DNA from: Escherichia coli
GTDB lineage: Bacteria > Pseudomonadota > Gammaproteobacteria > Enterobacterales > Enterobacteriaceae
DNA length: 64,000 nt
Direction: 5' to 3' (one strand)
Assembly: GCF_013315695.1 (NCBI RefSeq)
Contig: NZ_CP054353.1
The stretch's first letter is position 1. Each line of letters starts with the position of its first letter. Position numbers and translations under genes: made by a program. This document shows, piece by piece, positions 3,674 through 44,723 of the stretch. The notes under the pieces are model-generated. The model was not told the origin of the DNA, did no database searches, and worked only from the letters and a program-made list of their open reading frames with translations.

Positions 3674-3836
3674 TCACGCTGGCGAAGTTCGACAACGTTG
3701 AAGAACTGGTCGCTGATATAGCAGTCGTGTTTAACTGGTCGCCCGGCGAGATATTCTCAATGCCTCTCGTCGAGGTGATGAGCTGGCGTGAGCGGGCGGC
3801 GCAACGTAGCGGAGTCCGCAACAGTGAAATCCCTTG
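3290..3836 (+). CDS. E': E+E' fusion product predicted from -1 programmed frameshift at 3619..3626
   Basis: After a -1 slip on the T-run, the frame stays open to TGA at 3834..3836 and encodes ...VITLAKFDNVEELVADIAVVFNWSPGEIFSMPL..., resembling the conserved P2 E' extension. Confidence 0.55.
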
Positions 3837-6800
3837 ATATTCGTGTCAGCTTTGGCGCAATTGACCGGCTGACATGCCCGACCGAAAACGCCCGCCGTCA
3901 GGTGGGCGCTCTCACTGAATCCCTTCAGAAGACGCAGAACAACATACAGGCGCTCGACAGACAGTCGAAGGTGTTCGATCGTGCCGCCGGAAATCTCAGT
4001 AAATACCGCGAACAGATTGCCCGCGCGGAGCAGAGGCTCGCCGGGCTGCGAAAGGCAGAGCAGAACGGTAACATCCTCTCCGAAAAGCAGCGCGAAACGC
4101 TGGCGGCACTCTCCGCGCGGCTTGAGCGCCTGAACGAGCTGCGCACGCGCGAGCGCGAAAAACTCCAGGCGGCGGCTGGCGAAATGCGTAAACATGGCAT
4201 TCTGCTTTCCGGCAGCAGCCGCACCATCGAAAGTGCCGTTCGTCGCACGCAGCAGTACAACGAGCAGCTCGAGCGTGAACGGCAGGCTCTGGCTCGCGTG
4301 ACGCAGGCACAGAGCCGCTATGAGGCCGCGAAGGCACAGGCGGAAAAACTGCGCAACACAGGGGCTGTGGCGATGGCGGCGGGTACAGGCGGCCTGTATG
4401 CGGCGCAGCGCATGATGGCTCCGGCGATGGAGTCCGAACAGCACGGTGCGGTCATCGCAGCCGGTTCGGGGGAAGGCGCACAGGATGGCGCACGTTACAC
4501 CCACATCATCCGTAACATACAGGCTGACGGTCTCGCTGATTTTGCCGGTGCTGCGGAGGCCGTGAGTGCGGTACGCAGCACGCTCGGCGCACTGGGCGAC
4601 ACCGGTGACAGGGAGCTTGAGCGCATCAGCCGTCGTGCGCTGGATATGCGGACCGTCTTTGGTGTTGATGTGCCGCAGAGCATTCAGGCCGCTGCCATCA
4701 TGATGAAGAACGGGCTGGCCGCCAGCAGTGACGAGGCTACTAACCTGATGACGGCAGGGATGCAGCGCATGTCCGCTGAAATGCGCGATGAACTGCCGGA
4801 AATTCTGCATGAGTATTCCACCCACTTCCGCAACATGGGCTTCACCGGCAGCGAGACAATGAGTCTGCTGGTTGAGATGGCAAAGCAGGGCAAGTTTGCG
4901 CTGGACAAAACCGGCGATGCCGTGAAGGAGTTCAGTATCCGTGGTTCGGATATGTCGAAATCCAGTGTTTCAGCGTATGAGACACTTGGCCTGAATGCCG
5001 AACGGGTGTCTGCTGCCATTGCTCAGGGGGGCAGTACCGCACGCCAGGCGATGCAGGTGACCGCCCGTGCACTGCTGGCCATCCGTGACCCGGCAGAGCG
5101 GGCGAACACGGCCATTGCGTTATTCGGCACCCCCGTTGAAGACCTTTCCGTTGACCAGATCCCGCAGTTCCTGAGGGCGCTGGCTGATGTTCGTGACAAT
5201 CTGGGCGATGTCACCGGTGTGGCAGACCGCATGGGGCAGACGCTGCGCGGTAATCTCTCCGGCGATATTCAGGCGCTGAGTGGTGCGTTCTCAGGGCTAC
5301 GCACGGACATCTTCGGTACTGTGACCGAGGATTTGCGCGGGCTGGTTCAGACGGTGAGCGCGTGGGTGACCCGGATGCGCGAATGGGTCGGAGAGCATCA
5401 GGCGCTGGTCAGGGTGCTGGTACTGGCGGGCGGGAGTGTTCTGGCGCTGTCTTCTACGTTCGGTGCGCTGTCACTGACGCTCGGGCTGATTGCGGGGCCG
5501 CTGGCAAAACTGCAACTGGGACTGGGGCTGCTGACGGGGGGCGGCGGCATTGGTGGTGCTGTCCGGCTTGTGTCTGCGATGGCGCTGCGCCTGACGGGGC
5601 TGCCTGCGCTGTGGGGGCTGGTCACGGGGGCGGTGTCGGTACTGGGTGGTGCAGTGGGGGCGCTGTTCAGCCCGGTCGGGCTGATTGTTGCCGCCCTGGT
5701 GGGCGGCGCGGTTCTGGTGTGGAAATACTGGGATCAGATCAGTGCGTTTTTTTCCGGCTTTTTTGCCGGAGTGTGGGAGGCGCTGCAACCGCTGCGGGAA
5801 GCCTTTGCGTCGCTGGCTCCGGTGTTCGGGCTGATTGGCGATGGCATCAAAGCCGTGTGGGAATGGTTCACCCGCCTGCTTGAACCTGCAAACGCCTCAA
5901 AAGAGACACTCGACAAATGCACCAGCGCCGGGGAGTCGTTCGGGAAAACGCTGGGGTGGGTCATTCAGAACATTGTGCTGGGGCCGCTGACACTGCTTCT
6001 TGATGGCCTCGGCACAGTGCTGAAGTGGCTGGGTGTTATCCCGGATGGCATCAGGGAAGCGCAGAAGGAGACGCAAAAACTCCAGGAGAGCGCCGCAAAA
6101 CAGGCCACACAAAAAGCGCCGGTTGCGTGGGAGTGGGATCCTGCACAGAAAAAAATGGTGCAGAAAACATGGTCGTGGTCATCAGATGCAGCGGAAAACA
6201 ACGGTGACAATAAACCCGCAATACCTGCCCCTGCGGTTCCCGGAGAGGTGAAGGGAACGTCAGACAATCCGGTCGGCAAACCCGGTAGTAAATCCCCGCT
6301 GGATGAGGCATGGTTCCGGCAGGGGATACAGAAAACCGCCAGCAACACCGGCGGGCTGCTTGAGGAAACCAAAAAACGTACTGGTCCCGGCGATATTGTT
6401 TTCAAAAACCTGCCCGGACCCGAAATCATTCACGGCGAGTGGAAAGCACCGCAGGTTATCCGGACAGTGCAGGCGGTATCGGCGGGCGGAGGACTGGCGG
6501 ATGCGCTGACAACGCTCTGGCAGAAACTCACCGGAAGACAGACTGCTTCACCCGTTCCGGTCGTGAATATTCCTGCGCCAGTGGAGAGAGTGGCACGTCA
6601 GGTATCCACGCTGCCACAGCCGCAGCACAACGAGGCAAATACAGAACTGGTTGCCGGTATTCAGCGCGTGCATGAGGCTGTGAACAGTCCGGGGGGAGAG
6701 ACGGTATCGCCTCCACCTGTGGTGAACGTTCTGATGCCAGCAGTGAATGTTCCTGCGCCAGTGGTGAGTGTGGCGCGTCAGGTATCCACGCTGCCGCAGC

Positions 6801-7288
6801 ACAACGAGGCAAATACAGAACTGGTTGCCGGTATTCAGCGTGTGCATGAGGCGGTGAACAGTCCGGGTGGAGAGACGGTATCGCCTCCACCTGTGGTGAA
6901 CGTTCTGATGCCAGCAGTGAATGTTCCTGCGCCAGTGGTGAGCGTGGCCCGTCAGGTATCCACGCTGCCGCAGCACAACGAGGCAAATACAGAGCTGGCT
7001 GCCGGTATTCAGCGCGTGCGTGAGGCTGTGAACAGTCCGGGTGGAGATGTGGCTTTATCTGTTCCTGTTGCGGAGGTTATCCGTCCACCGCTGCGACCGG
7101 AGTCCGTCAAAAAAGAAACCGCGCCACAAACGCAGGCTGCGGTATTTTCCGGTGAGATACACGTGCATCTGCACAACGTCAACACGCAGAATCCGCGTGA
7201 ACTGGCAAAACTGGTTGGCGAGGCTGTCCGCGAAGAGATGCGCAGACAGGTGCGTACAGGCATGAACAGCTTCCGTGACAGGGACTAA
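3788..7288 (+). CDS. T: Tail tape measure protein T
   Basis: 1166-aa ORF after E/E' with coiled-coil N-terminal part, Gly/Ala/Leu-rich hydrophobic core and internal tandem repeats; start codon uncertain (GTG 3788 or a downstream GTG). Confidence 0.85.
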   Translation: MSGRRNVAESATVKSLDIRVSFGAIDRLTCPTENARRQVGALTESLQKTQNNIQALDRQSKVFDRAAGNLSKYREQIARAEQRLAGLRKAEQNGNILSEKQRETLAALSARLERLNELRTREREKLQAAAGEMRKHGILLSGSSRTIESAVRRTQQYNEQLERERQALARVTQAQSRYEAAKAQAEKLRNTGAVAMAAGTGGLYAAQRMMAPAMESEQHGAVIAAGSGEGAQDGARYTHIIRNIQADGLADFAGAAEAVSAVRSTLGALGDTGDRELERISRRALDMRTVFGVDVPQSIQAAAIMMKNGLAASSDEATNLMTAGMQRMSAEMRDELPEILHEYSTHFRNMGFTGSETMSLLVEMAKQGKFALDKTGDAVKEFSIRGSDMSKSSVSAYETLGLNAERVSAAIAQGGSTARQAMQVTARALLAIRDPAERANTAIALFGTPVEDLSVDQIPQFLRALADVRDNLGDVTGVADRMGQTLRGNLSGDIQALSGAFSGLRTDIFGTVTEDLRGLVQTVSAWVTRMREWVGEHQALVRVLVLAGGSVLALSSTFGALSLTLGLIAGPLAKLQLGLGLLTGGGGIGGAVRLVSAMALRLTGLPALWGLVTGAVSVLGGAVGALFSPVGLIVAALVGGAVLVWKYWDQISAFFSGFFAGVWEALQPLREAFASLAPVFGLIGDGIKAVWEWFTRLLEPANASKETLDKCTSAGESFGKTLGWVIQNIVLGPLTLLLDGLGTVLKWLGVIPDGIREAQKETQKLQESAAKQATQKAPVAWEWDPAQKKMVQKTWSWSSDAAENNGDNKPAIPAPAVPGEVKGTSDNPVGKPGSKSPLDEAWFRQGIQKTASNTGGLLEETKKRTGPGDIVFKNLPGPEIIHGEWKAPQVIRTVQAVSAGGGLADALTTLWQKLTGRQTASPVPVVNIPAPVERVARQVSTLPQPQHNEANTELVAGIQRVHEAVNSPGGETVSPPPVVNVLMPAVNVPAPVVSVARQVSTLPQHNEANTELVAGIQRVHEAVNSPGGETVSPPPVVNVLMPAVNVPAPVVSVARQVSTLPQHNEANTELAAGIQRVREAVNSPGGDVALSVPVAEVIRPPLRPESVKKETAPQTQAAVFSGEIHVHLHNVNTQNPRELAKLVGEAVREEMRRQVRTGMNSFRDRD
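6560..7060 (+). repeat. About 2.7 tandem copies of an in-frame ~174-bp unit inside T
   Basis: Peptide unit PAPVVSVARQVSTLPQHNEANTELVAGIQRVHEAVNSPGGETVSPPPVVNVLMPAVNV repeats near 6565, 6747 and 6921; the first copy carries an extra PQ. Confidence 0.8.
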
Positions 7289-7301: not shown

Positions 7302-7760
7302 ATGATGATGATTTTTGGCATGTTTGTGTTTGAACTGAAAACGCTGCCGCATCAACAGATTCAACAAAACAAAACGTGGCGGCATGTGAAAAATGAGCGA
7401 ATCAACCGTTCTGCGGCCTGGCAGTATATTGGCGCAGGTGACGACCAGATCACGCTGTCCGGTCTGCTGTACCCGGAAATTACCGGCGGTGAGGTGTCGC
7501 TGACACTGCTGAACACCCAGGCCTACACCGGATGTCCCTGGCCGCTGATTGATGGTACGGGGCAGATTTACGGAATGTACGTGATTACGGGATTACAGAC
7601 CACCCGCTCCGAACTGGATCGCTACGGGAAGGCAAAAAAGATTGAGTTCTCCATCAGCTTTCAGCGGTGTGATGAGGATATGCGGGAGAGGCTTCAGTCT
7701 GCTTCTGCAGGTGATTTACTGAACACGCTTAAAGACAAAATGGCGATAGCGGCATTCTGA
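7302..7760 (+). CDS. U: Tail protein U
   Basis: MMMIFGMFVFELKTLPHQQ...DDQITLSGLLYPEITGG... resembles P2 gpU; RBS AAGGAG before ATG 7302. Confidence 0.85.
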   Translation: MMMIFGMFVFELKTLPHQQIQQNKTWRHVKNERINRSAAWQYIGAGDDQITLSGLLYPEITGGEVSLTLLNTQAYTGCPWPLIDGTGQIYGMYVITGLQTTRSELDRYGKAKKIEFSISFQRCDEDMRERLQSASAGDLLNTLKDKMAIAAF

Positions 7761-7769
7761 ATAAAAAAA

Positions 7770-7796
7770 GAGGGAGTGTAAAAAGCACTCCCTTAT
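7770..7796 (+). terminator. Hairpin terminator candidate after U
   Basis: AGGGAGTG-loop-CACTCCCT followed by a T-containing tail. Confidence 0.45.
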
Positions 7797-7882
7797 TGCC
7801 TTCATGGAAAAGAAGCAAATGTTGTCAATACATTCTGACTATATATAAATCGCCCGATGAAGGCAATGGTGATGTTCGGGAA

Positions 7883-7908
7883 ATAAAAAAGCCCTCACAA
7901 AGAGGGCG
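7883..7908 (-). terminator. Rho-independent terminator candidate (minus strand)
   Basis: GCCCTC-ACAAA-GAGGGC preceded on the plus strand by an A8 run, i.e. hairpin plus U-run on the minus strand. Confidence 0.5.
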
Positions 7909-8070
7909 GCATGCATTGTGTGAAGATTTAATTTTTCTGCTTGCAGGGGGATTATATTGAACGGTATTCATTCAATGCAATATTTTTAATTGTCATTATC
8001 ATTAATGAAAATGTTTCTTGTGTTTTTGTTGCTCTGATTACAATCCCGTTTATTACTGTGTCTTTGCGGC

Positions 8071-8097
8071 AAAAAAAAAGCCCGCACGGGGCGGGCA
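8071..8097 (-). terminator. Rho-independent terminator candidate (minus strand), just downstream of the decayed G
   Basis: GCCCGC-ACGG-GGCGGG hairpin with an A9 run on the plus strand (U-run on minus). Confidence 0.6.
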
Positions 8098-8140
8098 AAG
8101 AATGTTTGCATGTGTAGAACAGTGCGGGATTATAAATATA

Positions 8141-8711
8141 TTATGCGTTCTGAAAAGTCCCCTTTGATGGAGATTCAGGCCATACCAGCGCATTATAACA
8201 ATCTTTATTCATCACGGAAGTGAACGTCAACTGCTGAAGTTCCCTAATATATTCAATCCACGTAGCCAACCTTCCCTTGTCTGCATTGCTGATGGTGCCG
8301 GGCAATAACTCAGATTGCCAGATTCTGATCCTCTCTTTTGCCTCCGGCAGCAGGGGATTTCGTTGTCATTCTGCTTTAGCCTGCCACTTTTCAGGTGGCA
8401 GCACATGACGAACAATATTTTCATCATCAAATATCCAGTTACCTGAGTCATCAGCACGTTGGTTAGCGTTAATATCAGAAGTATTAACAACACTAAAACC
8501 GACATGATTAAGTGTTGATGCCTCTCTGGTAATGGTGACAATAATATTATTTCGTTGTAAATCATTTTGATTTTATCTGGTCGAAAGGTCCCTGCTTCGT
8601 TATGTCAGTTTTATCGCCTTCAGAGGAAACCAGATTACTTTGTGCTTCTTTTTCTAACACATACAGTCCCGGAGTTAATATTGCCTGTTTTATGTTCTTG
8701 AGTGCATCATA
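8141..8711 (-). pseudogene. G: Decayed tail fibre assembly gene G (frameshifted, with an early in-frame stop)
   Basis: Minus-strand translations in two frames give NNIIVTITREASTLNHVGFSVVNTSDINANQRADDSGNWIFDDENIV and ...ADKGRLATWIEYIRELQQL...VWPESP, resembling P2 gpG; the N-terminal part reads MMHSRT-stop. Confidence 0.6.
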
Positions 8712-8767
8712 TTAATCTCTTACATATTGTATCTGGTGAAATTTATAATTTTCTGAAGCTGCCTGAA

Positions 8768-8898
8768 AGAATTGAGTTTCCTGCAGGCTTTCAATGGTGT
8801 GATGAGGATATGTGGGAGAAACTCCAGTCTGCTCCTGCAGGGGGGGCTTACTGAACACTATCAAAGACAAATCTTCGTCGTTGATCGCATTCCCTTAA
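8768..8898 (+). pseudogene. Diverged second copy of the 3' end of tail gene U (fragment)
   Basis: DNA is homologous to 7631..7760 (roughly four-fifths identical by eye, TGTGATGAGGATATG core conserved), with a G7 run causing a frame break; the 5' part of U is absent. Confidence 0.6.
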
Positions 8899-8903
8899 CC
8901 TGA

Positions 8904-8938
8904 CGCCACCACCCCACACAGATGACGGGGTGGTGGCG
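8904..8938. terminator. Strong GC hairpin between the U fragment and the tail-fibre operon
   Basis: CGCCACCACCCC-loop-GGGGTGGTGGCG perfect 12-bp stem; no clear U-run, so terminator function is uncertain. Confidence 0.35.
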
Positions 8939-8943
8939 TGATT

Positions 8944-9240
8944 TCACCAGTAACTAACCAGCAGCCAGAACAACAGGCATATTGCCACTGGTGCAGCAAA
9001 ATCCATCAGGCTTCCGGCATCCCACACGCGCGGATCAAAACCACCCCACCAGGGCATGTTAATTCGTTTCCCTTTCCCGAATTTTTCAATCCAGCGATAT
9101 TCTGCCTGGGTGTGTTCACGCGCAATGAAGAACGAGCAACCGGCTATCGCTCCGTAAACCCAGTTTCCCGTAAGAATGCCAGCCAGTACCTGCGCAGCCA
9201 CGGCACAAAGTGCATGAAGGACAGGCGTTATATCCATCAC
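8944..9240 (-). CDS. Small two-TM membrane protein of unknown function, last gene of the tail-fibre operon
   Basis: 98-aa ORF with hydrophobic N- and C-terminal segments; GGGAGG RBS 9 bp upstream; co-directional with and immediately downstream of H and orf92. Confidence 0.6.
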   Translation of the reverse strand: MMDITPVLHALCAVAAQVLAGILTGNWVYGAIAGCSFFIAREHTQAEYRWIEKFGKGKRINMPWWGGFDPRVWDAGSLMDFAAPVAICLLFWLLVSYW

Positions 9241-9249
9241 TCCCTCCCT

Positions 9250-9528
9250 TCAGCTCCATTCCCGAAGCGGTGCTTCCAGCTCCACCACATAATCAGAGAA
9301 CACAGAAACATCAAACGTATCATCAAGAATACGAATGTTGACAAAATAACCGTCATTCCGGATACAGACAGGTTCTCCCTCTTCATTTTCCCCTGTTTCT
9401 GTATAGGTGAAACCAATTTCATCGACTAACAGTTTGTTCTGGAGGTCTTCATTTTCCTCCCAGCCAAGAGATGACAGGAGGGCTTTAAACTGCTGTTTGT
9501 CATGAAACTTCAAAGTCAAATCTTTCAT
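9250..9528 (-). CDS. Acidic 92-aa protein translationally coupled to tail fibre H (candidate non-canonical fibre chaperone)
   Basis: ATGA start/stop overlap with H at 9525..9528; no resemblance to P2 gpG noticed; occupies the position G holds in P2. Confidence 0.55.
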   Translation of the reverse strand: MKDLTLKFHDKQQFKALLSSLGWEENEDLQNKLLVDEIGFTYTETGENEEGEPVCIRNDGYFVNIRILDDTFDVSVFSDYVVELEAPLREWS

Positions 9529-11306
9529 ATTGCCTCTCTTAATTGCCTGTCATTTAATTCTTTATGCCATATGCGGAAATTACGAATGTGACCAAACAGA
9601 TGTCGTTCTCCAGTACTCGTTCGCCCTCCAATACGGATAATTGCGGAGTTCTGAATATATGACCATGTGGTTTTTGTTTCGCCGGATAACCGTCCGTTAC
9701 TGACTGAGCATGTAGACTGATCTGACTTTACTCGCATCCCTATAACCATTTTTTCAAGTGATGCGTTTTCGTTTACCCGCATGTTAGCCCCGCCTATATC
9801 GCAATAAGGAAATCCGTCGTAATCCGTCGAACGACCGAATCCAAGAATAATTTCCTCTCCAGTTTGATGACCACTGGTATTAAGAACACGCGGTGCTGCA
9901 TTTGGCGTTTTATACCAGTTCTTATGTACCTCACAAAGAACAGTAAAAGGAGGATTATAAAGATTATTCTTAACCGGAACTGTCACAATATCACTTGCAC
10001 GTGTTGCTGGTGTTGCACCCGATATAATAAATGATGATGCGCAGGGGCCATTTTCAACCTGAGGGGTGGACAGGAAAACATAATCTCCTGATTCAACGAC
10101 ACCACCTTCTTTCGGAGTGTATTGTATTGCCGATGTTATGTAGGACTCATCAATTGCCTGAATCGTTGCCTCTGCAAAAATCCAGCCGGTAACCTCATCT
10201 TTGTTAACTCGGGCAGTGATCCTGTCGGCAGCTCCTCCTGTGATTTTAACTGATAAAGATCGCGTATTAACAATGGCATATCCAAGGTTAGATGATGTGT
10301 TGCCATCGTAAGATTCAAACCTGATCCTTAACATGAGTTCCAGATCAGTTTTAAATCTGCACGATGTCGTCACGCACTTATTATCGCCTGAAACATCGAC
10401 GGCTCCGGTTACTGCAACTGATGCCATGTTAACAGGCAGGGACTGCCCAATCAGAGAATCGTTACAGACGAACTTTCCATAGGTAAAACCAGAACTGTCC
10501 GTCCCGGTTTCGGGAACATCCATATTTACCGACTTGCCCCAGTTGACCGGGGTTTCCGAATTGAGCATGTAGTTTGTTCTTTGCCCTTCAATAAGCAGTC
10601 CATCGCGTTCAAATCGCGGCTCATTAATTTCAGCTATTTTCAGTTCACCGGATTTATTGATATAGGTTGCCGTTGATGCGCGACTGAAACTAACCTGTTT
10701 ATCACTGGCAACCTGAACCACATCGTCACCAATGGTGATTTTTTTATAGCCCGGTGCGAACCCCGTAAGCATATCCAGTGAATCGTTAAACGGTATCCAC
10801 ACATCAGGCAGCGGCGGTACAGACTCCTTTTCCTGCGCAACATATTCTTCAACATAGGCGCGGGTGGCGAGCACGACAGAGGGATCAACTTTCAGTTCGA
10901 CAGACGAAGCACTGGAAACCACAACAATCATGCGAATCGTCTGCGTGCGCCCGCTTCCCTCGGTGAGTACAGGCTTGTAGGTTTCGGGGCAGTTCGCCAC
11001 GGCAATCATCACGCCGTCGCTGTCAAAAAGCCCAATCTCGCGGATCCAGAACCCCCCTTTATCTTCCGGGATAATCATCTCGGCGATAAGCTGGCTGGCA
11101 TCAGACGCGCTGATGCTCAGTTGATTCAATGGGGCGCTGTATACCGTGTTCACCAGATTTTCCATGGAAGCCTCCGGTTCCGGCAGGCTGCCGCCGCCAT
11201 CCCCCAGTTTCATGGTGGTGATGGATATTTTCGAGCCGCTGGCCACCGCCTTTGCCAGACGGGCGGCACCCTTGTCAGTCAGAACAGAAAAATATTTTAC
11301 AGTCAT
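9525..11306 (-). CDS. H: Tail fibre protein H (conserved P2-like N-terminus, divergent C-terminal region)
   Basis: N-terminus ...ITTMKLGDGGGSLPEP...WIREIGLFDSDGVMIAVANCPETYKP...SGRTQTIRMIVVVSSASSVELKVDPSVVLATRAYV matches P2 gpH; the rest is unrelated, as expected for a receptor-binding part. Confidence 0.85.
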   Translation of the reverse strand: MTVKYFSVLTDKGAARLAKAVASGSKISITTMKLGDGGGSLPEPEASMENLVNTVYSAPLNQLSISASDASQLIAEMIIPEDKGGFWIREIGLFDSDGVMIAVANCPETYKPVLTEGSGRTQTIRMIVVVSSASSVELKVDPSVVLATRAYVEEYVAQEKESVPPLPDVWIPFNDSLDMLTGFAPGYKKITIGDDVVQVASDKQVSFSRASTATYINKSGELKIAEINEPRFERDGLLIEGQRTNYMLNSETPVNWGKSVNMDVPETGTDSSGFTYGKFVCNDSLIGQSLPVNMASVAVTGAVDVSGDNKCVTTSCRFKTDLELMLRIRFESYDGNTSSNLGYAIVNTRSLSVKITGGAADRITARVNKDEVTGWIFAEATIQAIDESYITSAIQYTPKEGGVVESGDYVFLSTPQVENGPCASSFIISGATPATRASDIVTVPVKNNLYNPPFTVLCEVHKNWYKTPNAAPRVLNTSGHQTGEEIILGFGRSTDYDGFPYCDIGGANMRVNENASLEKMVIGMRVKSDQSTCSVSNGRLSGETKTTWSYIQNSAIIRIGGRTSTGERHLFGHIRNFRIWHKELNDRQLREAI

Positions 11307-12079
11307 GAAAAAATCCTCAAAGAATCCTCCAGAAATACCACTGATGCTGTCAGGGTTCCGGTTGTGGCGGTCAGTTGCATCACCGCCTGTGGCTCCACGG
11401 TCACCGCATCATCGCCCGTAACCTGTAATCCCATGACAATCCCCGCATCGACAGATACCGACGGTGTCGGCGGGTAAATGGTGAGCATGTCGCCGTCAAA
11501 GAAAGCCGGAGATGCCCGGAACACCGAAACAGTCTCAACACCGGCAGAAGCGGCTGGCCAGATTGTTGTTTCACTGCCGTCGTGCATGCCGGAAAACACA
11601 CGTGCGACTCCCTGCGTATCCAGCATAATGTTCAGCGAGGCAAGGTGGCGGCTGACCGGACGGGCATCGTCGATCAGTCGTGTCAGCTCGGAGTACGTTT
11701 CCTCTGTGATACCCGCGTCCTGCACGCCAATATCAATGCGGAACGTGCCGCGCGGGTCGCCGTTCTGCCACCACTCCGTCACGTTAATGACATAGCCAAA
11801 GGGTTCAACCACACGCCTGATGGCGCTGATGGTTCCCTTATGGCGGTGGATTGCCCAGGCATCACGGATCACCTGGCGCTTTGTTTCTTCCGTCCAGTCA
11901 CGATCCCACCTGTCCACGGACAGCGCCCACGCCAGATAAGGCAGCAGGGCTGCCGGGCAGGTGTCAGGATCCCAGAGCTGGTTAAGGCTGACAGGTAATG
12001 CTGACAACCGGGCGGTTCCCCGCTCCACGCAGCGCATGAAATCGCTGGCTGAAGGGGGGAGAAGTGACGGTTCACTCAT
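11303..12079 (-). CDS. I: Baseplate protein I
   Basis: DTCPAALLPYLAWALSVDRWDRDWTE motif typical of P2 gpI; start placed at MSEPSLLPP. Confidence 0.8.
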   Translation of the reverse strand: MSEPSLLPPSASDFMRCVERGTARLSALPVSLNQLWDPDTCPAALLPYLAWALSVDRWDRDWTEETKRQVIRDAWAIHRHKGTISAIRRVVEPFGYVINVTEWWQNGDPRGTFRIDIGVQDAGITEETYSELTRLIDDARPVSRHLASLNIMLDTQGVARVFSGMHDGSETTIWPAASAGVETVSVFRASPAFFDGDMLTIYPPTPSVSVDAGIVMGLQVTGDDAVTVEPQAVMQLTATTGTLTASVVFLEDSLRIFS

Positions 12080-12968
12080 TGGTTCCCCCTGTGCTGACCG
12101 TGAACGATGTGCAGTACGCTGACTGCACATCACTGATAACAATATTCTGTGCGGGGCTGGTCAGTTCCACGCGCTGAACGCCCTGAACATGCAGTGCGGC
12201 CATGATGGCGGAGAGCGCGACATCGCGACCGATTTTGCCCTGTTCGGCAAGCCAGGTTTCCAGATTGTTTCTGGCGGCATTCAGGATGGGTTCCGACTCC
12301 GGCCCCGGATAAAAGTAAAGCCGGGCATCAATCTGATACCGTATGATTTCTGCGCTCTGCACCGTCAGACGGTCACCGACCGGGCGAACGTCTTCGGCAT
12401 TCAGCGCATTTCTGACCGTTGTCAGGAGTTCTTCGGTCGCCGTGCCGTCGCCTTCTGTGGACAACACTGTCACCACCACTTCCGCCGGTGCGGGGCTGGT
12501 TGCGCGCGCGTCCGCCACCTGACCGCTGGCACTGCGGGCAAAATATTCATACGCCCCGGTGGGACCGGCCACGCTGAGGCCATCAAATGCAGACTGCGCA
12601 CGCAGCCGCAGGGCGGAGTCGCTTTCCATGACGGCCTCCGTGGTGTCCATGGCCGGTGTGATGACCAGCCGCGCGGTGTTCATGTTGGCAGCGAGGTTGT
12701 CCAGGTCATCACCTGTGGAATGGCTCAGCATACAGGCCGCTGCGCCCTCATTAATGCGCTGGCGAAGCAGCAGTTCACGCAGCGCGAAAGCCTGGGCAAT
12801 GACCGTGAGCGGTTCGGACTCCAACGCCATGGCTGACCGGATGGCAGCCTGCTGTGTCTGTGGAAATGACGTAATGATGTCTTCTTTCACTTCCGCTAGG
12901 ATGACTTCAAAATCCGGCGTTTCAATAATCTGTGGTGTCGGCAGTTCCGACAGGTCAACGGCTGGCAT
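12072..12968 (-). CDS. J: Baseplate protein J
   Basis: 298-aa ORF at the P2 J position with matching size; overlaps W and I ends as in P2. Confidence 0.85.
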   Translation of the reverse strand: MPAVDLSELPTPQIIETPDFEVILAEVKEDIITSFPQTQQAAIRSAMALESEPLTVIAQAFALRELLLRQRINEGAAACMLSHSTGDDLDNLAANMNTARLVITPAMDTTEAVMESDSALRLRAQSAFDGLSVAGPTGAYEYFARSASGQVADARATSPAPAEVVVTVLSTEGDGTATEELLTTVRNALNAEDVRPVGDRLTVQSAEIIRYQIDARLYFYPGPESEPILNAARNNLETWLAEQGKIGRDVALSAIMAALHVQGVQRVELTSPAQNIVISDVQSAYCTSFTVSTGGTNE

Positions 12969-42344: not shown

Positions 42345-44723
42345 ATGTCCAACAATGGCTCGTCACCGCTGGTGCTTTGGTATAACCAACTCGGCATGAA
42401 TGATGTAGACAGGGTTGGGGGCAAAAATGCCTCCCTGGGTGAAATGATTACTAACCTTTCCGGAATGGGTGTTTCCGTTCCGAATGGTTTCGCCACAACC
42501 GCCGACGCGTTTAACCAGTTTCTGGACCAAAGCGGCGTAAACCAGCGCATTTATGAACTGCTGGATAAAACGGATATTGACGATGTTACCCAGCTTGCGA
42601 AAGCGGGCGCGCAAATCCGCCAGTGGATTATCGACACTCCCTTCCAGCCTGAGCTGGAAAACGCCATCCGCGAAGCCTATGCACAGCTTTCCGCCGATGA
42701 CGAAAACGCCTCGTTTGCGGTGCGTTCCTCCGCTACTGCAGAAGATATGCCGGACGCTTCTTTTGCCGGTCAGCAGGAAACCTTCCTCAACGTTCAGGGT
42801 TTTGACGCCGTTCTCGTGGCAGTGAAACATGTATTTGCTTCTCTGTTTAACGATCGCGCCATCTCTTATCGTGTGCACCAGGGTTACGATCACCGTGGCG
42901 TGGCGCTCTCCGCCGGTGTTCAGCGGATGGTGCGCTCCGACCTCGCATCTTCTGGCGTGATGTTCTCCATTGATACCGAATCCGGCTTTGACCAGGTGGT
43001 GTTTATCACTTCCGCATGGGGCCTTGGTGAAATGGTCGTGCAGGGTGCGGTTAACCCGGATGAGTTTTACGTGCACAAACCGACACTGGCGGCGAATCGC
43101 CCGGCTATCGTGCGCCGCACCATGGGGTCGAAAAAAATCCGCATGGTTTACGCGCCGACCCAGGAGCACGGCAAGCAGGTTAAAATCGAAGACGTACCGC
43201 AGGAACAGCGTGACATCTTCTCGCTGACCAACGAAGAAGTGCAGGAACTGGCAAAACAGGCCGTACAAATTGAGAAACACTACGGTCGCCCGATGGATAT
43301 TGAGTGGGCGAAAGATGGCCACACCGGCAAACTGTTCATTGTGCAGGCGCGTCCGGAAACCGTGCGCTCACGCGGTCAGGTCATGGAGCGTTATACGCTG
43401 CATTCACAGGGTAAGATTATCGCCGAAGGCCGTGCTATCGGTCATCGCATCGGCGCGGGTCCGGTGAAAGTCATCCATGACATCAGCGAAATGAACCGCA
43501 TCGAACCTGGTGACGTGCTGGTTACTGACATGACCGACCCGGACTGGGAACCGATCATGAAGAAAGCATCTGCCATCGTCACCAACCGTGGCGGTCGTAC
43601 CTGTCACGCGGCGATCATCGCTCGTGAACTCGGCATTCCGGCGGTAGTGGGCTGTGGTGATGCAACAGAACGGATGAAAGACGGTGAGAACGTCACTGTT
43701 TCTTGTGCCGAAGGTGATACCGGTTATGTCTATGCGGAGTTGCTGGAATTTAGCGTGAAAAGCTCCAGCGTAGAAACGATGCCGGACCTGCCGTTGAAGG
43801 TGATGATGAACGTCGGTAACCCGGATCGTGCTTTCGACTTCGCCTGCCTGCCGAACGAAGGCGTGGGCCTTGCGCGTCTGGAATTTATCATCAACCGTAT
43901 GATTGGCGTCCACCCACGCGCACTGCTTGAGTTTGACGATCAGGAACCGCAGTTGCAAAACGAAATCCGCGAGATGATGAAAGGTTTTGATTCTCCGCGT
44001 GAATTTTACGTTGGGCGTTTGACTGAAGGGATCGCGACGCTGGGTGCCGCGTTTTATCCGAAGCGCGTCATTGTCCGTCTCTCTGATTTTAAATCGAACG
44101 AATATGCCAACCTGGTCGGTGGTGAGCGTTACGAGCCAGATGAAGAGAACCCGATGCTCGGCTTCCGTGGCGCGGGCCGCTATGTTTCCGACAGCTTCCG
44201 CGACTGCTTCGCGCTGGAGTGTGAAGCAGTGAAACGTGTGCGCAACGACATGGGGCTGACCAACGTTGAGATCATGATCCCGTTCGTGCGTACCGTAGAT
44301 CAGGCGAAAGCGGTGGTTGAGGAACTGGCGCGTCAGGGGCTGAAACGTGGTGAGAACGGGCTGAAAATCATCATGATGTGTGAAATCCCGTCCAACGCCT
44401 TGCTGGCCGAGCAGTTCCTCGAATATTTCGACGGCTTCTCAATTGGCTCAAACGACATGACGCAGCTGGCGCTCGGTCTGGATCGTGACTCCGGCGTGGT
44501 ATCTGAACTGTTCGATGAGCGCAACGATGCGGTGAAAGCACTGCTGTCGATGGCGATTCGTGCCGCGAAGAAACAGGGCAAATATGTCGGGATTTGCGGT
44601 CAGGGTCCATCCGACCACGAAGACTTTGCTGCATGGTTGATGGAAGAGGGGATCGATAGCCTGTCTCTTAACCCGGACACCGTGGTGCAAACCTGGTTAA
44701 GTCTGGCTGAACTTAACAAGTAA
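42345..44723 (+). CDS. ppsA: Phosphoenolpyruvate synthase
   Basis: 792-aa ORF; PEP-utilising motifs [17 protein letters not shown]. Confidence 0.95.

Follow-up and report, generated by a model that had tools for sequence, protein, structure and literature searches.

What fills the 1.18 kb that separate the tail gene U from the end of the tail-fibre operon in this Escherichia coli prophage, and how did it come to lie there? The window (the whole stretch of DNA that was analysed, 64,000 nucleotides of contig NZ_CP054353.1) is of E. coli origin, its ppsA (42345-44723) being 100% identical to several complete genomes, and carries in its first ~34 kb a P2-like prophage, whose ORF map shows the gene order of the P88-like Peduoviridae. 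Sheath, tube, E, the tape measure gene T (3788-7288) and U run on the plus strand, and V, W, J, I and H, followed by a 92-aa and a 98-aa gene, converge on this tail block from the minus strand; the resulting order, D / FI FII E E' T U converging on H I J W V, agrees with that of annotated relatives and with the P88 layout. Phage P88 (Xuanwuvirus, Peduoviridae) likewise has D on one strand, after which FI, FII, E, T and U run towards the fibre operon, and its U is 79% identical (Table 1), but in P88 this gene is followed by a DNA invertase and an invertible fibre segment, both of which are absent from the window. The layout is thus that of P88 and not that of P2 itself, and G adjoins U in it, not FI as in P2. 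Resident U is a full-length homologue (~150-165 aa) of the P2 gpU-type family phrog_76. Between U and the fibre operon (7761-8943), the ORF list holds no frame longer than 58 aa, in agreement with a preliminary description of this DNA that had seen no intact gene there. We consider it likely that the interval is a non-functional recombination scar, left by a crossover in a P88-like prophage and followed by decay of the tail fibre assembly gene (tfa, the G of P2).

Table 1. Features in and around the interval between U and the tail-fibre operon, in window coordinates.
Feature	Position	Strand	Basis
Tail gene U, intact, 152 aa	7302-7760	+	ORF; phrog_76 tail protein, E = 2.7e-65; 79% amino acid identity to P88 U
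Final 41 codons of U, from which the duplicated piece derives or to which it is homologous	7635-7757	+	
Conserved non-coding island of the AT-rich spacer	7761-7935		90-96% identity to four relatives
Bidirectional terminator-like hairpin directly 3' of the U stop codon; A-run before it, T-run after it on the minus strand	7771-7793	both	terminator scan, fold
Second intrinsic-terminator-like hairpin	7891-7907	-	terminator scan; fold z = -3.4
Terminator predicted for the old fibre operon; 45 nt beyond the tfa stop codon	8080-8096	-	terminator scan, fold
tfa pseudogene (Tfa / P2 gpG type, Caudo_TAP)	8141-8711	-	tblastn, Pfam, DNA alignment
Last 15-16 codons and TAA stop (8723-8721) of a former P2-H/Mu-S-type fibre gene	8721-8771	-	DNA alignment, shuffles
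U', repeat of the final 41 codons of U; reading frame shifted in the G7 run 8840-8846; stop codon 8896-8898	8765-8898	+	tblastn, alignment
Hairpin of 13 bp, rich in G+C, that separates U' from the end of the present fibre operon; neither strand has a T-run	8903-8939		fold, alignment
Gene for a 98-aa membrane protein with two TM segments, phrog_1443; closes the present fibre operon	8944-9240	-	ORF, profile searches
92-aa gene, phrog_1361	9250-9528	-	start overlaps the H stop codon; position of tfa in lambda
Tail-fibre gene H, 593 aa	9525-11306	-	profile searches, DNA homology

The largest piece of the interval is the remnant of a tail-fibre chaperone gene. On the minus strand, 8551-8141 aligns at 64% identity (tblastn, E = 1e-56) with residues 54-188 of the Tfa that is intact in the related prophage L003, in one frame that is interrupted by a single in-frame TGA (8368-8366), and its conceptual translation matches Pfam Caudo_TAP (PF02413, E = 4.9e-14), the family of P2 gpG, Mu U/U' and lambda Tfa. 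The first 165 nt of the gene (8711-8552) are recognisable as DNA, with 78% identity to the tfa of SfMu and 69% to P2 G, and they contain eight 1-nt indels (seven deletions and one insertion), as a result of which the tfa frame stops after six codons. A functional Tfa is an open frame of ~175-190 codons placed directly after its cognate fibre gene; the copy in the window differs from other Caudo_TAP genes in its eight frameshifts and one nonsense codon and in its separation from any fibre gene of its type, only 15 codons of a fibre gene being left upstream of it. Judged by these lesions, 8141-8711 is a pseudogene, as had been proposed in the preliminary description, and the terminator said to follow it is indeed retained, the stretch 8096-8080 being invariant in an alignment across five relatives. 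Orphan or pseudogene copies of tfa occur in E. coli cryptic prophages.

With respect to the mode of decay, dN/dS is 0.34 in the in-frame part of tfa and 0.05 in U, the dS being the same; together with the divergence of the scar between lineages, this fits relaxed selection. The indels are unevenly spread, with eight in 165 nt followed by none in 410 nt (~5e-5 under a uniform rate), a pattern that is not explained by simple neutral decay since one event; the 3' part of tfa may have been refreshed by later recombination with intact tfa genes. Exchange between scarred and intact lineages does happen, since the scar-bearing relative L002 and the intact L003 are 99.6% identical in U and spacer.

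Directly upstream of the dead tfa lies an element that is new beyond the preliminary description and that fixes the joint precisely, namely the end of the old fibre gene. The minus strand at 8771-8721 encodes FRQLQKIINFTRYNM followed by a stop codon, comparable to YRPVQKYINGTWYNVASV before the stop in SfMu and FRPIQKYINGTWYNVAQV before the stop in P2; the score of the DNA alignment is reached by none of 500 shuffles against SfMu and by 4 of 500 against P2. Reading along the minus strand, we observe FRQLQKIINFTRYNM, the TAA, a 9-nt gap and the tfa ATG at 8711, and the fibre tails of SfMu and P2 are likewise followed by tfa genes. The same arrangement holds in P2, Mu and P1, where tfa comes directly after a fibre tail of the ...QKYINGTWYNV type, as in the remnant. 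The N-terminal half of tfa and the H tail share the P2/SfMu type and hence form a cognate pair; in work on the roles of the Tfa domains, the N-terminal half is the fibre-binding one (PMC9608196).

On its other side, this fibre tail abuts a partial copy of U (U'), which had been described as a second, diverged U 3' end at 8768-8898 and whose start we set to 8765. U' is roughly 80% identical to U, with a local alignment score of 59 against a maximum of 16 in 500 shuffles, and U residues 112-143 are matched by tblastn (E = 2e-9). In the pairwise alignment that had been called for, identity is 79% between 7636-7711 and 8766-8841 and 88% between 7716-7739 and 8848-8871; the distance from the first block to the second differs by 2 nt between U and U', which indicates a frameshift in the G7 run listed in Table 1. 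DNA similarity is clear over 8765-8871 and can be followed on to the stop codon only by frame-corrected translation (LLNTIKDKSSSLIAFP against LLNTLKDKMAIAAF, each ending in a stop). Having only residues 112-152 and being frameshifted, U' is no gpU-type gene in the sense in which resident U is one. The H homology ends at ~8771 and the U homology begins at 8765, so that the joint falls at 8765-8771, within CTGAAAGAATTGAG; it is a non-homologous joint between two truncated genes on opposite strands. The hairpin that follows U' folds at -29 to -31 kcal/mol (z = -5.3 and -5.5) and, having no T-run, does not qualify as an intrinsic terminator; in one relative (L001), its stem shows a compensatory change from CCCC/GGGG to CCTC/GAGG.

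The preliminary description had called for a comparison with relatives that keep an intact G, and two such relatives were found: the E. coli genome L003 (CP080260) and an IMG/VR contig, L096. Both have U, a 380-nt spacer, an intact 187-aa Tfa and a fibre of 1055-1079 aa that ends in ...INGTWYTAASV, and neither has a second piece of U. Across complete E. coli genomes, 71 of 5426 carry the window type of U and spacer. Classes were assigned to these by the extent of the match into the remnant, and six genomes (L001-L006) were examined; on this basis, one has an intact Tfa, two are of the L001 type and the rest are of the L004 type by match extent (three of the rest having been examined). Window 8367-8725 is absent from all 71 census genomes. 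The joint of H tail and U' is common to five of the six examined relatives (L001, L002, L004, L005 and L006), which indicates that it is older than these lineages. L001 and L002 have the structure of the window minus 8368-8561 and about 8572-8725, both deletions being flanked by direct repeats (ATTTCGTTGT; ATT(T/G)TATCTGGT). The type of L004, L005 and L006, which includes ST131 strains, has one deletion, of about 8305-8650, and keeps the tfa start, a homologous fibre tail remnant (QRQKYLNGTRCNM) and the U copy, joined at the same place; these three genomes carry a different fibre (948 aa) with only one small gene, and their type of U' ends in a different terminator than that of the window. The longest fossil is that of the window and of L010, an independent IMG/VR contig that is 99.8% identical across the scar. 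Between lineages, the scar is ~70% identical (70-75%) against 86-90% in the flanks, as would be expected for neutral DNA, and the deletions in relatives are independent, the tfa remnant having been eroded several times.

These observations can be arranged into an order of events. The ancestor would have had a P2-H/Mu-S-type fibre and its cognate Tfa ending opposite U, as L003 and L096 still do. A single unequal, non-homologous crossover between two co-linear genomes of the P88-like family would then have linked the old H, 15 codons short of its end, to U codon ~112 of the other genome. The left parent would have given T, U, the spacer with its terminators, tfa and the 45-nt H tail, and the right parent the 130-nt U tail, the hairpin and a working fibre operon, so that the recombinant would have kept every essential gene once, plus ~1.1 kb of orphaned DNA. 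In that DNA, tfa would have been cut off from its fibre, downstream of the new end of the operon, and would have gained frameshifts and a stop codon in the absence of selection; in sister lineages, deletions would have removed part of it. The present lambdoid fibre end would have been swapped in independently of the joint, and the terminators are probably the only part of the interval that still works.

The second parent in this order of events we infer only, because no intact U'-type U facing a 98-aa gene was found in phages, in IMG/VR or in a set of 5.8 billion proteins. The frame-corrected U' peptide has its best match among 50,697 phage records in the U of phiT5282H, at 50% identity (tblastn), and a degenerate DNA pattern for QWCDEDMWE retrieves from IMG/VR only two scar-bearing contigs. 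The search of the 5.8-billion-protein set with U' returned only a spurious 66-aa ORF called on the scar itself, and among the best 80 of 312 IMG/VR loci with a homologue of the 98-aa protein, U is nearby only in the window's own family. The distances involved (U' to U about 20-27%, U' to U' between lineages ~28%) are compatible both with a decayed copy of resident U and with the U of a second parent, and U' could stem from a duplication between sister copies. In that case, an unequal crossover would have doubled a 1.13-kb segment running from U codon 112 to H codon -15, and the distal spacer, tfa and fibre end would later have been replaced by other fibre modules. The U'-U distance (~20%) is indeed at the level of neutral decay, the scars of different lineages being ~70-75% identical, no separate donor lineage was found, and in L004 the terminator after U' resembles that after U. 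On the other hand, such a tandem duplication needs at least two events and has left no trace of a second spacer or tfa to the right of U', and the shared pre-split divergence of ~9% fits a diverged relative equally well. We rank it second, after the crossover between two relatives, as a possibility that is to be taken seriously without being the expected one.

Whether the U 3' end could instead have arrived together with the present fibre depends on where the fibre module begins and ends. The N-terminal 149 aa of H are a P2-type PF12571 domain, and its distal part (codons ~162/163-593, 9525-10819) is of the lambdoid side-tail-fibre type (phrog_1419), with a GTA-spike-fibre-like domain and a weak lectin-like end. 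Lambdoid DNA homology covers H from codon ~162 (10819) onwards and both small genes, ending at 8942-8955, where the 98-aa gene has its stop codon; it reaches 10819 in 15 lambdoid loci of IMG/VR, with ~75% identity in one locus listed. Phage 21 has the same three genes in the same order, with stf, the 92-aa gene and a gene for a 97-aa two-TM protein following J, and its DNA is 88% identical over 8955-9600; the difference is that in the window the module has been joined to the N-terminal domain of a P2-type fibre and lies in the baseplate operon of a myovirus. The fibre of this prophage, accompanied by two uncharacterised accessory genes, is thus of the phage 21 type. H in its present form lacks a Tfa-type tip, and no Caudo_TAP gene occurs in the fibre operon; neither the 92-aa nor the 98-aa protein is a Caudo_TAP protein or has a Pfam or NCBIfam match. 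We considered the 92-aa gene as an alternative chaperone and found no support for this: besides lacking such matches, the protein has no PDB neighbour (best E = 0.05, TM < 0.45) for a model with a pLDDT of 90.

At the left end, none of the 78 loci from outside the family shows lambdoid homology left of 8942. The homology stops at the end of the 98-aa gene, which indicates that U' and the hairpin at 8903-8939 lie outside the cassette; and the L004 type, in which the joint of H tail and U' is combined with another fibre and a single small gene, shows that this joint and the fibre module now in place go back to separate events. We therefore read 8942-10819, on the strength of these homology boundaries, as a lambdoid side-tail-fibre module without a Caudo_TAP chaperone that has been exchanged independently of the joint. 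The preliminary description had suggested that recombination brought in a foreign segment, made up of a new C-terminus for H, two small genes and a 3' end of U, after which G decayed; the scar of fibre-module turnover and the decayed G stand, and the U end as part of the cassette does not. Insertion of all these pieces in a single step, replacing the old fibre end, would agree with their contiguity at 8765-10819, with the G+C content of the whole variable stretch (44-48%, against 55-61% in the phage core) and with the presence of the same combination in L001 and L002. It is nonetheless unlikely, given the end of the lambdoid cassette at the 98-aa stop codon in all 78 loci, the lack of any U-like sequence near the lambdoid loci (best 80 of 312 IMG/VR loci) and the L004 type, with its 948-aa fibre, single small gene and different terminator after U' at the same joint.

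Next to the scar proper, the spacer between U and the dead tfa (7761-8140) had been described as AT-rich DNA with two minus-strand terminators. It is indeed AT-rich (37% G+C, against 51-61% in the flanking tail genes), and the number of terminators has to be corrected from two to three: G+C-rich hairpins with a T-run, predicted from sequence only, are found on the minus strand at 8096-8080, 7907-7891 and 7793-7771. The last of these, which also closes U, folds at -16.6 kcal/mol on the plus strand (z = -6.4) and at -12.8 kcal/mol on the minus strand (z = -3.3). In 7600-9300 as a whole, there are 7 terminator-like sites against 1.5 +/- 1.3 in shuffles. The whole AT-rich spacer is 86-90% identical in relatives, including the intact-G relative L003, and is a conserved intergenic region. 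Conservation is highest in its first 175 nt (7761-7935), where identity to four relatives is 90-96%, against 78-84% at U third codon positions (Fisher, p = 1e-4 to 1e-2) and 73-87% over the 135 nt that follow. In part, the spacer is thus more conserved than synonymous sites, and the interval is not all junk.

It is conceivable, if rather doubtful, that this island encodes a small regulatory RNA or insulates the convergent late operons from each other. Apart from its conservation, it contains two hairpin/T-run terminators and a minus-strand promoter-like site (7866-7838), and its predicted fold is better than that of shuffles (z = -4.7). Against such a working locus stand the absence of any Rfam match near threshold in 7600-9100 and the small number of distinct sequences compared (only ~5), and a recent U-spacer recombination, of the kind suggested by the near identity of L002 and L003 in this region, could mimic constraint. 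A long-range stem (7796-7805/7858-7867) was predicted, yet it is broken without compensation in L001, L003 and L004, and we rejected it as a conserved structure. If the island did have this role, it would keep the convergent late operons from mutual read-through, which would explain its survival through every fibre swap in the P88-like family. We also tried 7935-7967 as a third, older U-like fragment and discarded it as too weak: 4 of 1000 shuffles reach its score against U' and 42 of 1000 against U itself, and it is unrecognisable in L001 and L003.

P88 suggests a further origin for the interval, as the collapsed form of an invertible fibre segment, in which a Gin/Cin-like invertase serves alternative pairs of fibre tip and tfa. 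In P88, a DNA invertase does lie between U and the fibre operon, together with a second, inverted pair of fibre tip and tfa, but the P88 invertase finds no match in 7600-9000 (tblastn), there is one tfa remnant where the segments of the Mu G, P1 C or P88 type have an invertase and alternative tips, the remnant is oriented like an expressed copy, and the U fragment is left unexplained; we rejected an invertase relic in 7600-9000, and regard an origin of this kind as highly improbable. An assembly artefact or chance similarity can be set aside as having next to no probability, given the same structure in the independent contig L010, the derived forms in all five scar-bearing genomes among the complete E. 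coli genomes of the 71-member family that were examined, and similarity scores far beyond those of shuffles.

The preliminary description had further taken this position to be that of the P2 Z/fun cargo locus, here empty and eroded, an identification that we do not follow. The two positions do resemble each other, both being stretches of low G+C content that follow G where the V-G operon ends. They differ in that the P2 locus lies between G and FI and encodes Fun(Z) or another conversion gene, whereas the neighbour here is U and the spacer is conserved intergenic DNA, present also in the relative with intact G. The C-terminal 289 aa of Fun(Z) have no tblastn match here and the P2 G-fun spacer has no blastn match.

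The scar is nothing out of the ordinary in kind, being a phage mosaic joint in which pseudogene remnants persist, though the specimen is unusually complete, and no new kind of system is revealed by it. Work on HK97 and HK022 is reportedly the classical study of phage mosaic joints. As in other mosaic joints, two unrelated partial genes meet sharply at a module boundary, flanked by modules exchanged through homology; different here, and rarer than a clean joint, is that both truncated parental genes remain recognisable and that relatives show graded later deletions. The mosaic joints of temperate phages have been debated as products of non-homologous "cut and paste" or of relaxed homologous recombination (PMC3945230), and this locus has both side by side, one putatively illegitimate joint and swaps that recur at gene and domain borders. 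It is a legible record of how a temperate phage changes its host-recognition end, with both parental genes partly preserved: the chaperone gene would have died once it was parted from its fibre, and relatives show successive deletions, two of them flanked by short direct repeats. For annotation, the locus carries a warning: what some RefSeq relatives, L002 among them, list as a short "tail fiber assembly protein" CDS is a fragment.

The junction after tail gene U is a hotspot for differing host-range devices within this phage family, since in phage P88 (NC_026014, 6525-9229) U is followed by a DNA invertase together with a second fiber-tip/tfa pair in inverted orientation. Two related IMG/VR loci (L093 and L094) show a different layout, in which U is followed by the spacer, an approximately 80-nt tfa remnant and then immediately plus-strand open reading frames (ORFs), one of 188 aa and a longer one that measures 349 aa in L093 and no less than 311 aa in L094, where the contig end truncates it. 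The fiber and baseplate block appears to be absent or rearranged in both loci.

With respect to the scar itself, we observe that decay of the tfa pseudogene (8141-8711) is strongly uneven along its length, with all 8 frameshifting indels lying within the first 165 nt, while the other 410 nt contain zero frameshifting indels and one TGA. The scar is also present in an ENA contig, where the G run at 8840-8846 is apparently one G shorter than in the window, so that gene callers predict a spurious 66-aa ORF spanning the point where the old H tail meets the second copy of the U 3' end (U').

Between U and the tfa remnant, a noncoding island shows 90 to 96% identity among relatives, compared with 78 to 84% at U third codon positions, and the 135 nt that follow it change at a roughly neutral rate. 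The stretch at 7935-7967 is weakly similar to the 3' end of U and U' (TGCAGGGGGATTATATTGAAC); its score was matched by only 4 of 1,000 shuffles against U' and by 42 of 1,000 against U. This could be an earlier layer of the same type of scar, or chance.

Features of the tail region in and around the scar
Feature	Coordinates	Description
Tandem repeat, 174 nt	6563-7047	Within tape measure gene T (3788-7288); 2.8 copies, 93% identity
Noncoding island	7761-7935	Two terminator hairpins and a promoter-like site (minus strand)
98-aa gene	8944-9240	Two-TM; phrog_1443
92-aa gene	9250-9528	Overlaps the H stop codon; position is that of tfa in lambda
Baseplate protein I ORF	11303-12142	279 aa from TTG; ~257 aa from likely ATG

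Among the best 80 of 312 IMG/VR loci matching the 98-aa gene, the DNA match is limited to 8942-9243 in 49, mostly lambdoid prophages, with assorted fiber genes preceding it. In terms of DNA, the gene behaves as a separate cassette, with a possible role in exclusion or conversion. The family of the neighboring 92-aa gene is found in only two genera, Escherichia and Shigella. Its AlphaFold model is confident (pLDDT 90), a PDB structure search gave no neighbor (best E of 0.05), and searches of Pfam and NCBIfam gave no match.

Baseplate protein I is longer in the window than in the related prophages L003 and L004 (177 to 179 aa), with the extra length being C-terminal, and is marked incomplete by RefSeq in L001 and L002. 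The tape measure protein ranges from 935 to 1,275 aa across the window and its relatives (2,808 bp in L004, 3,069 bp in L003, 3,501 bp in the window and 3,828 bp in L001), differences that would predict different tail lengths. The copy number of the repeat within T also varies among relatives.
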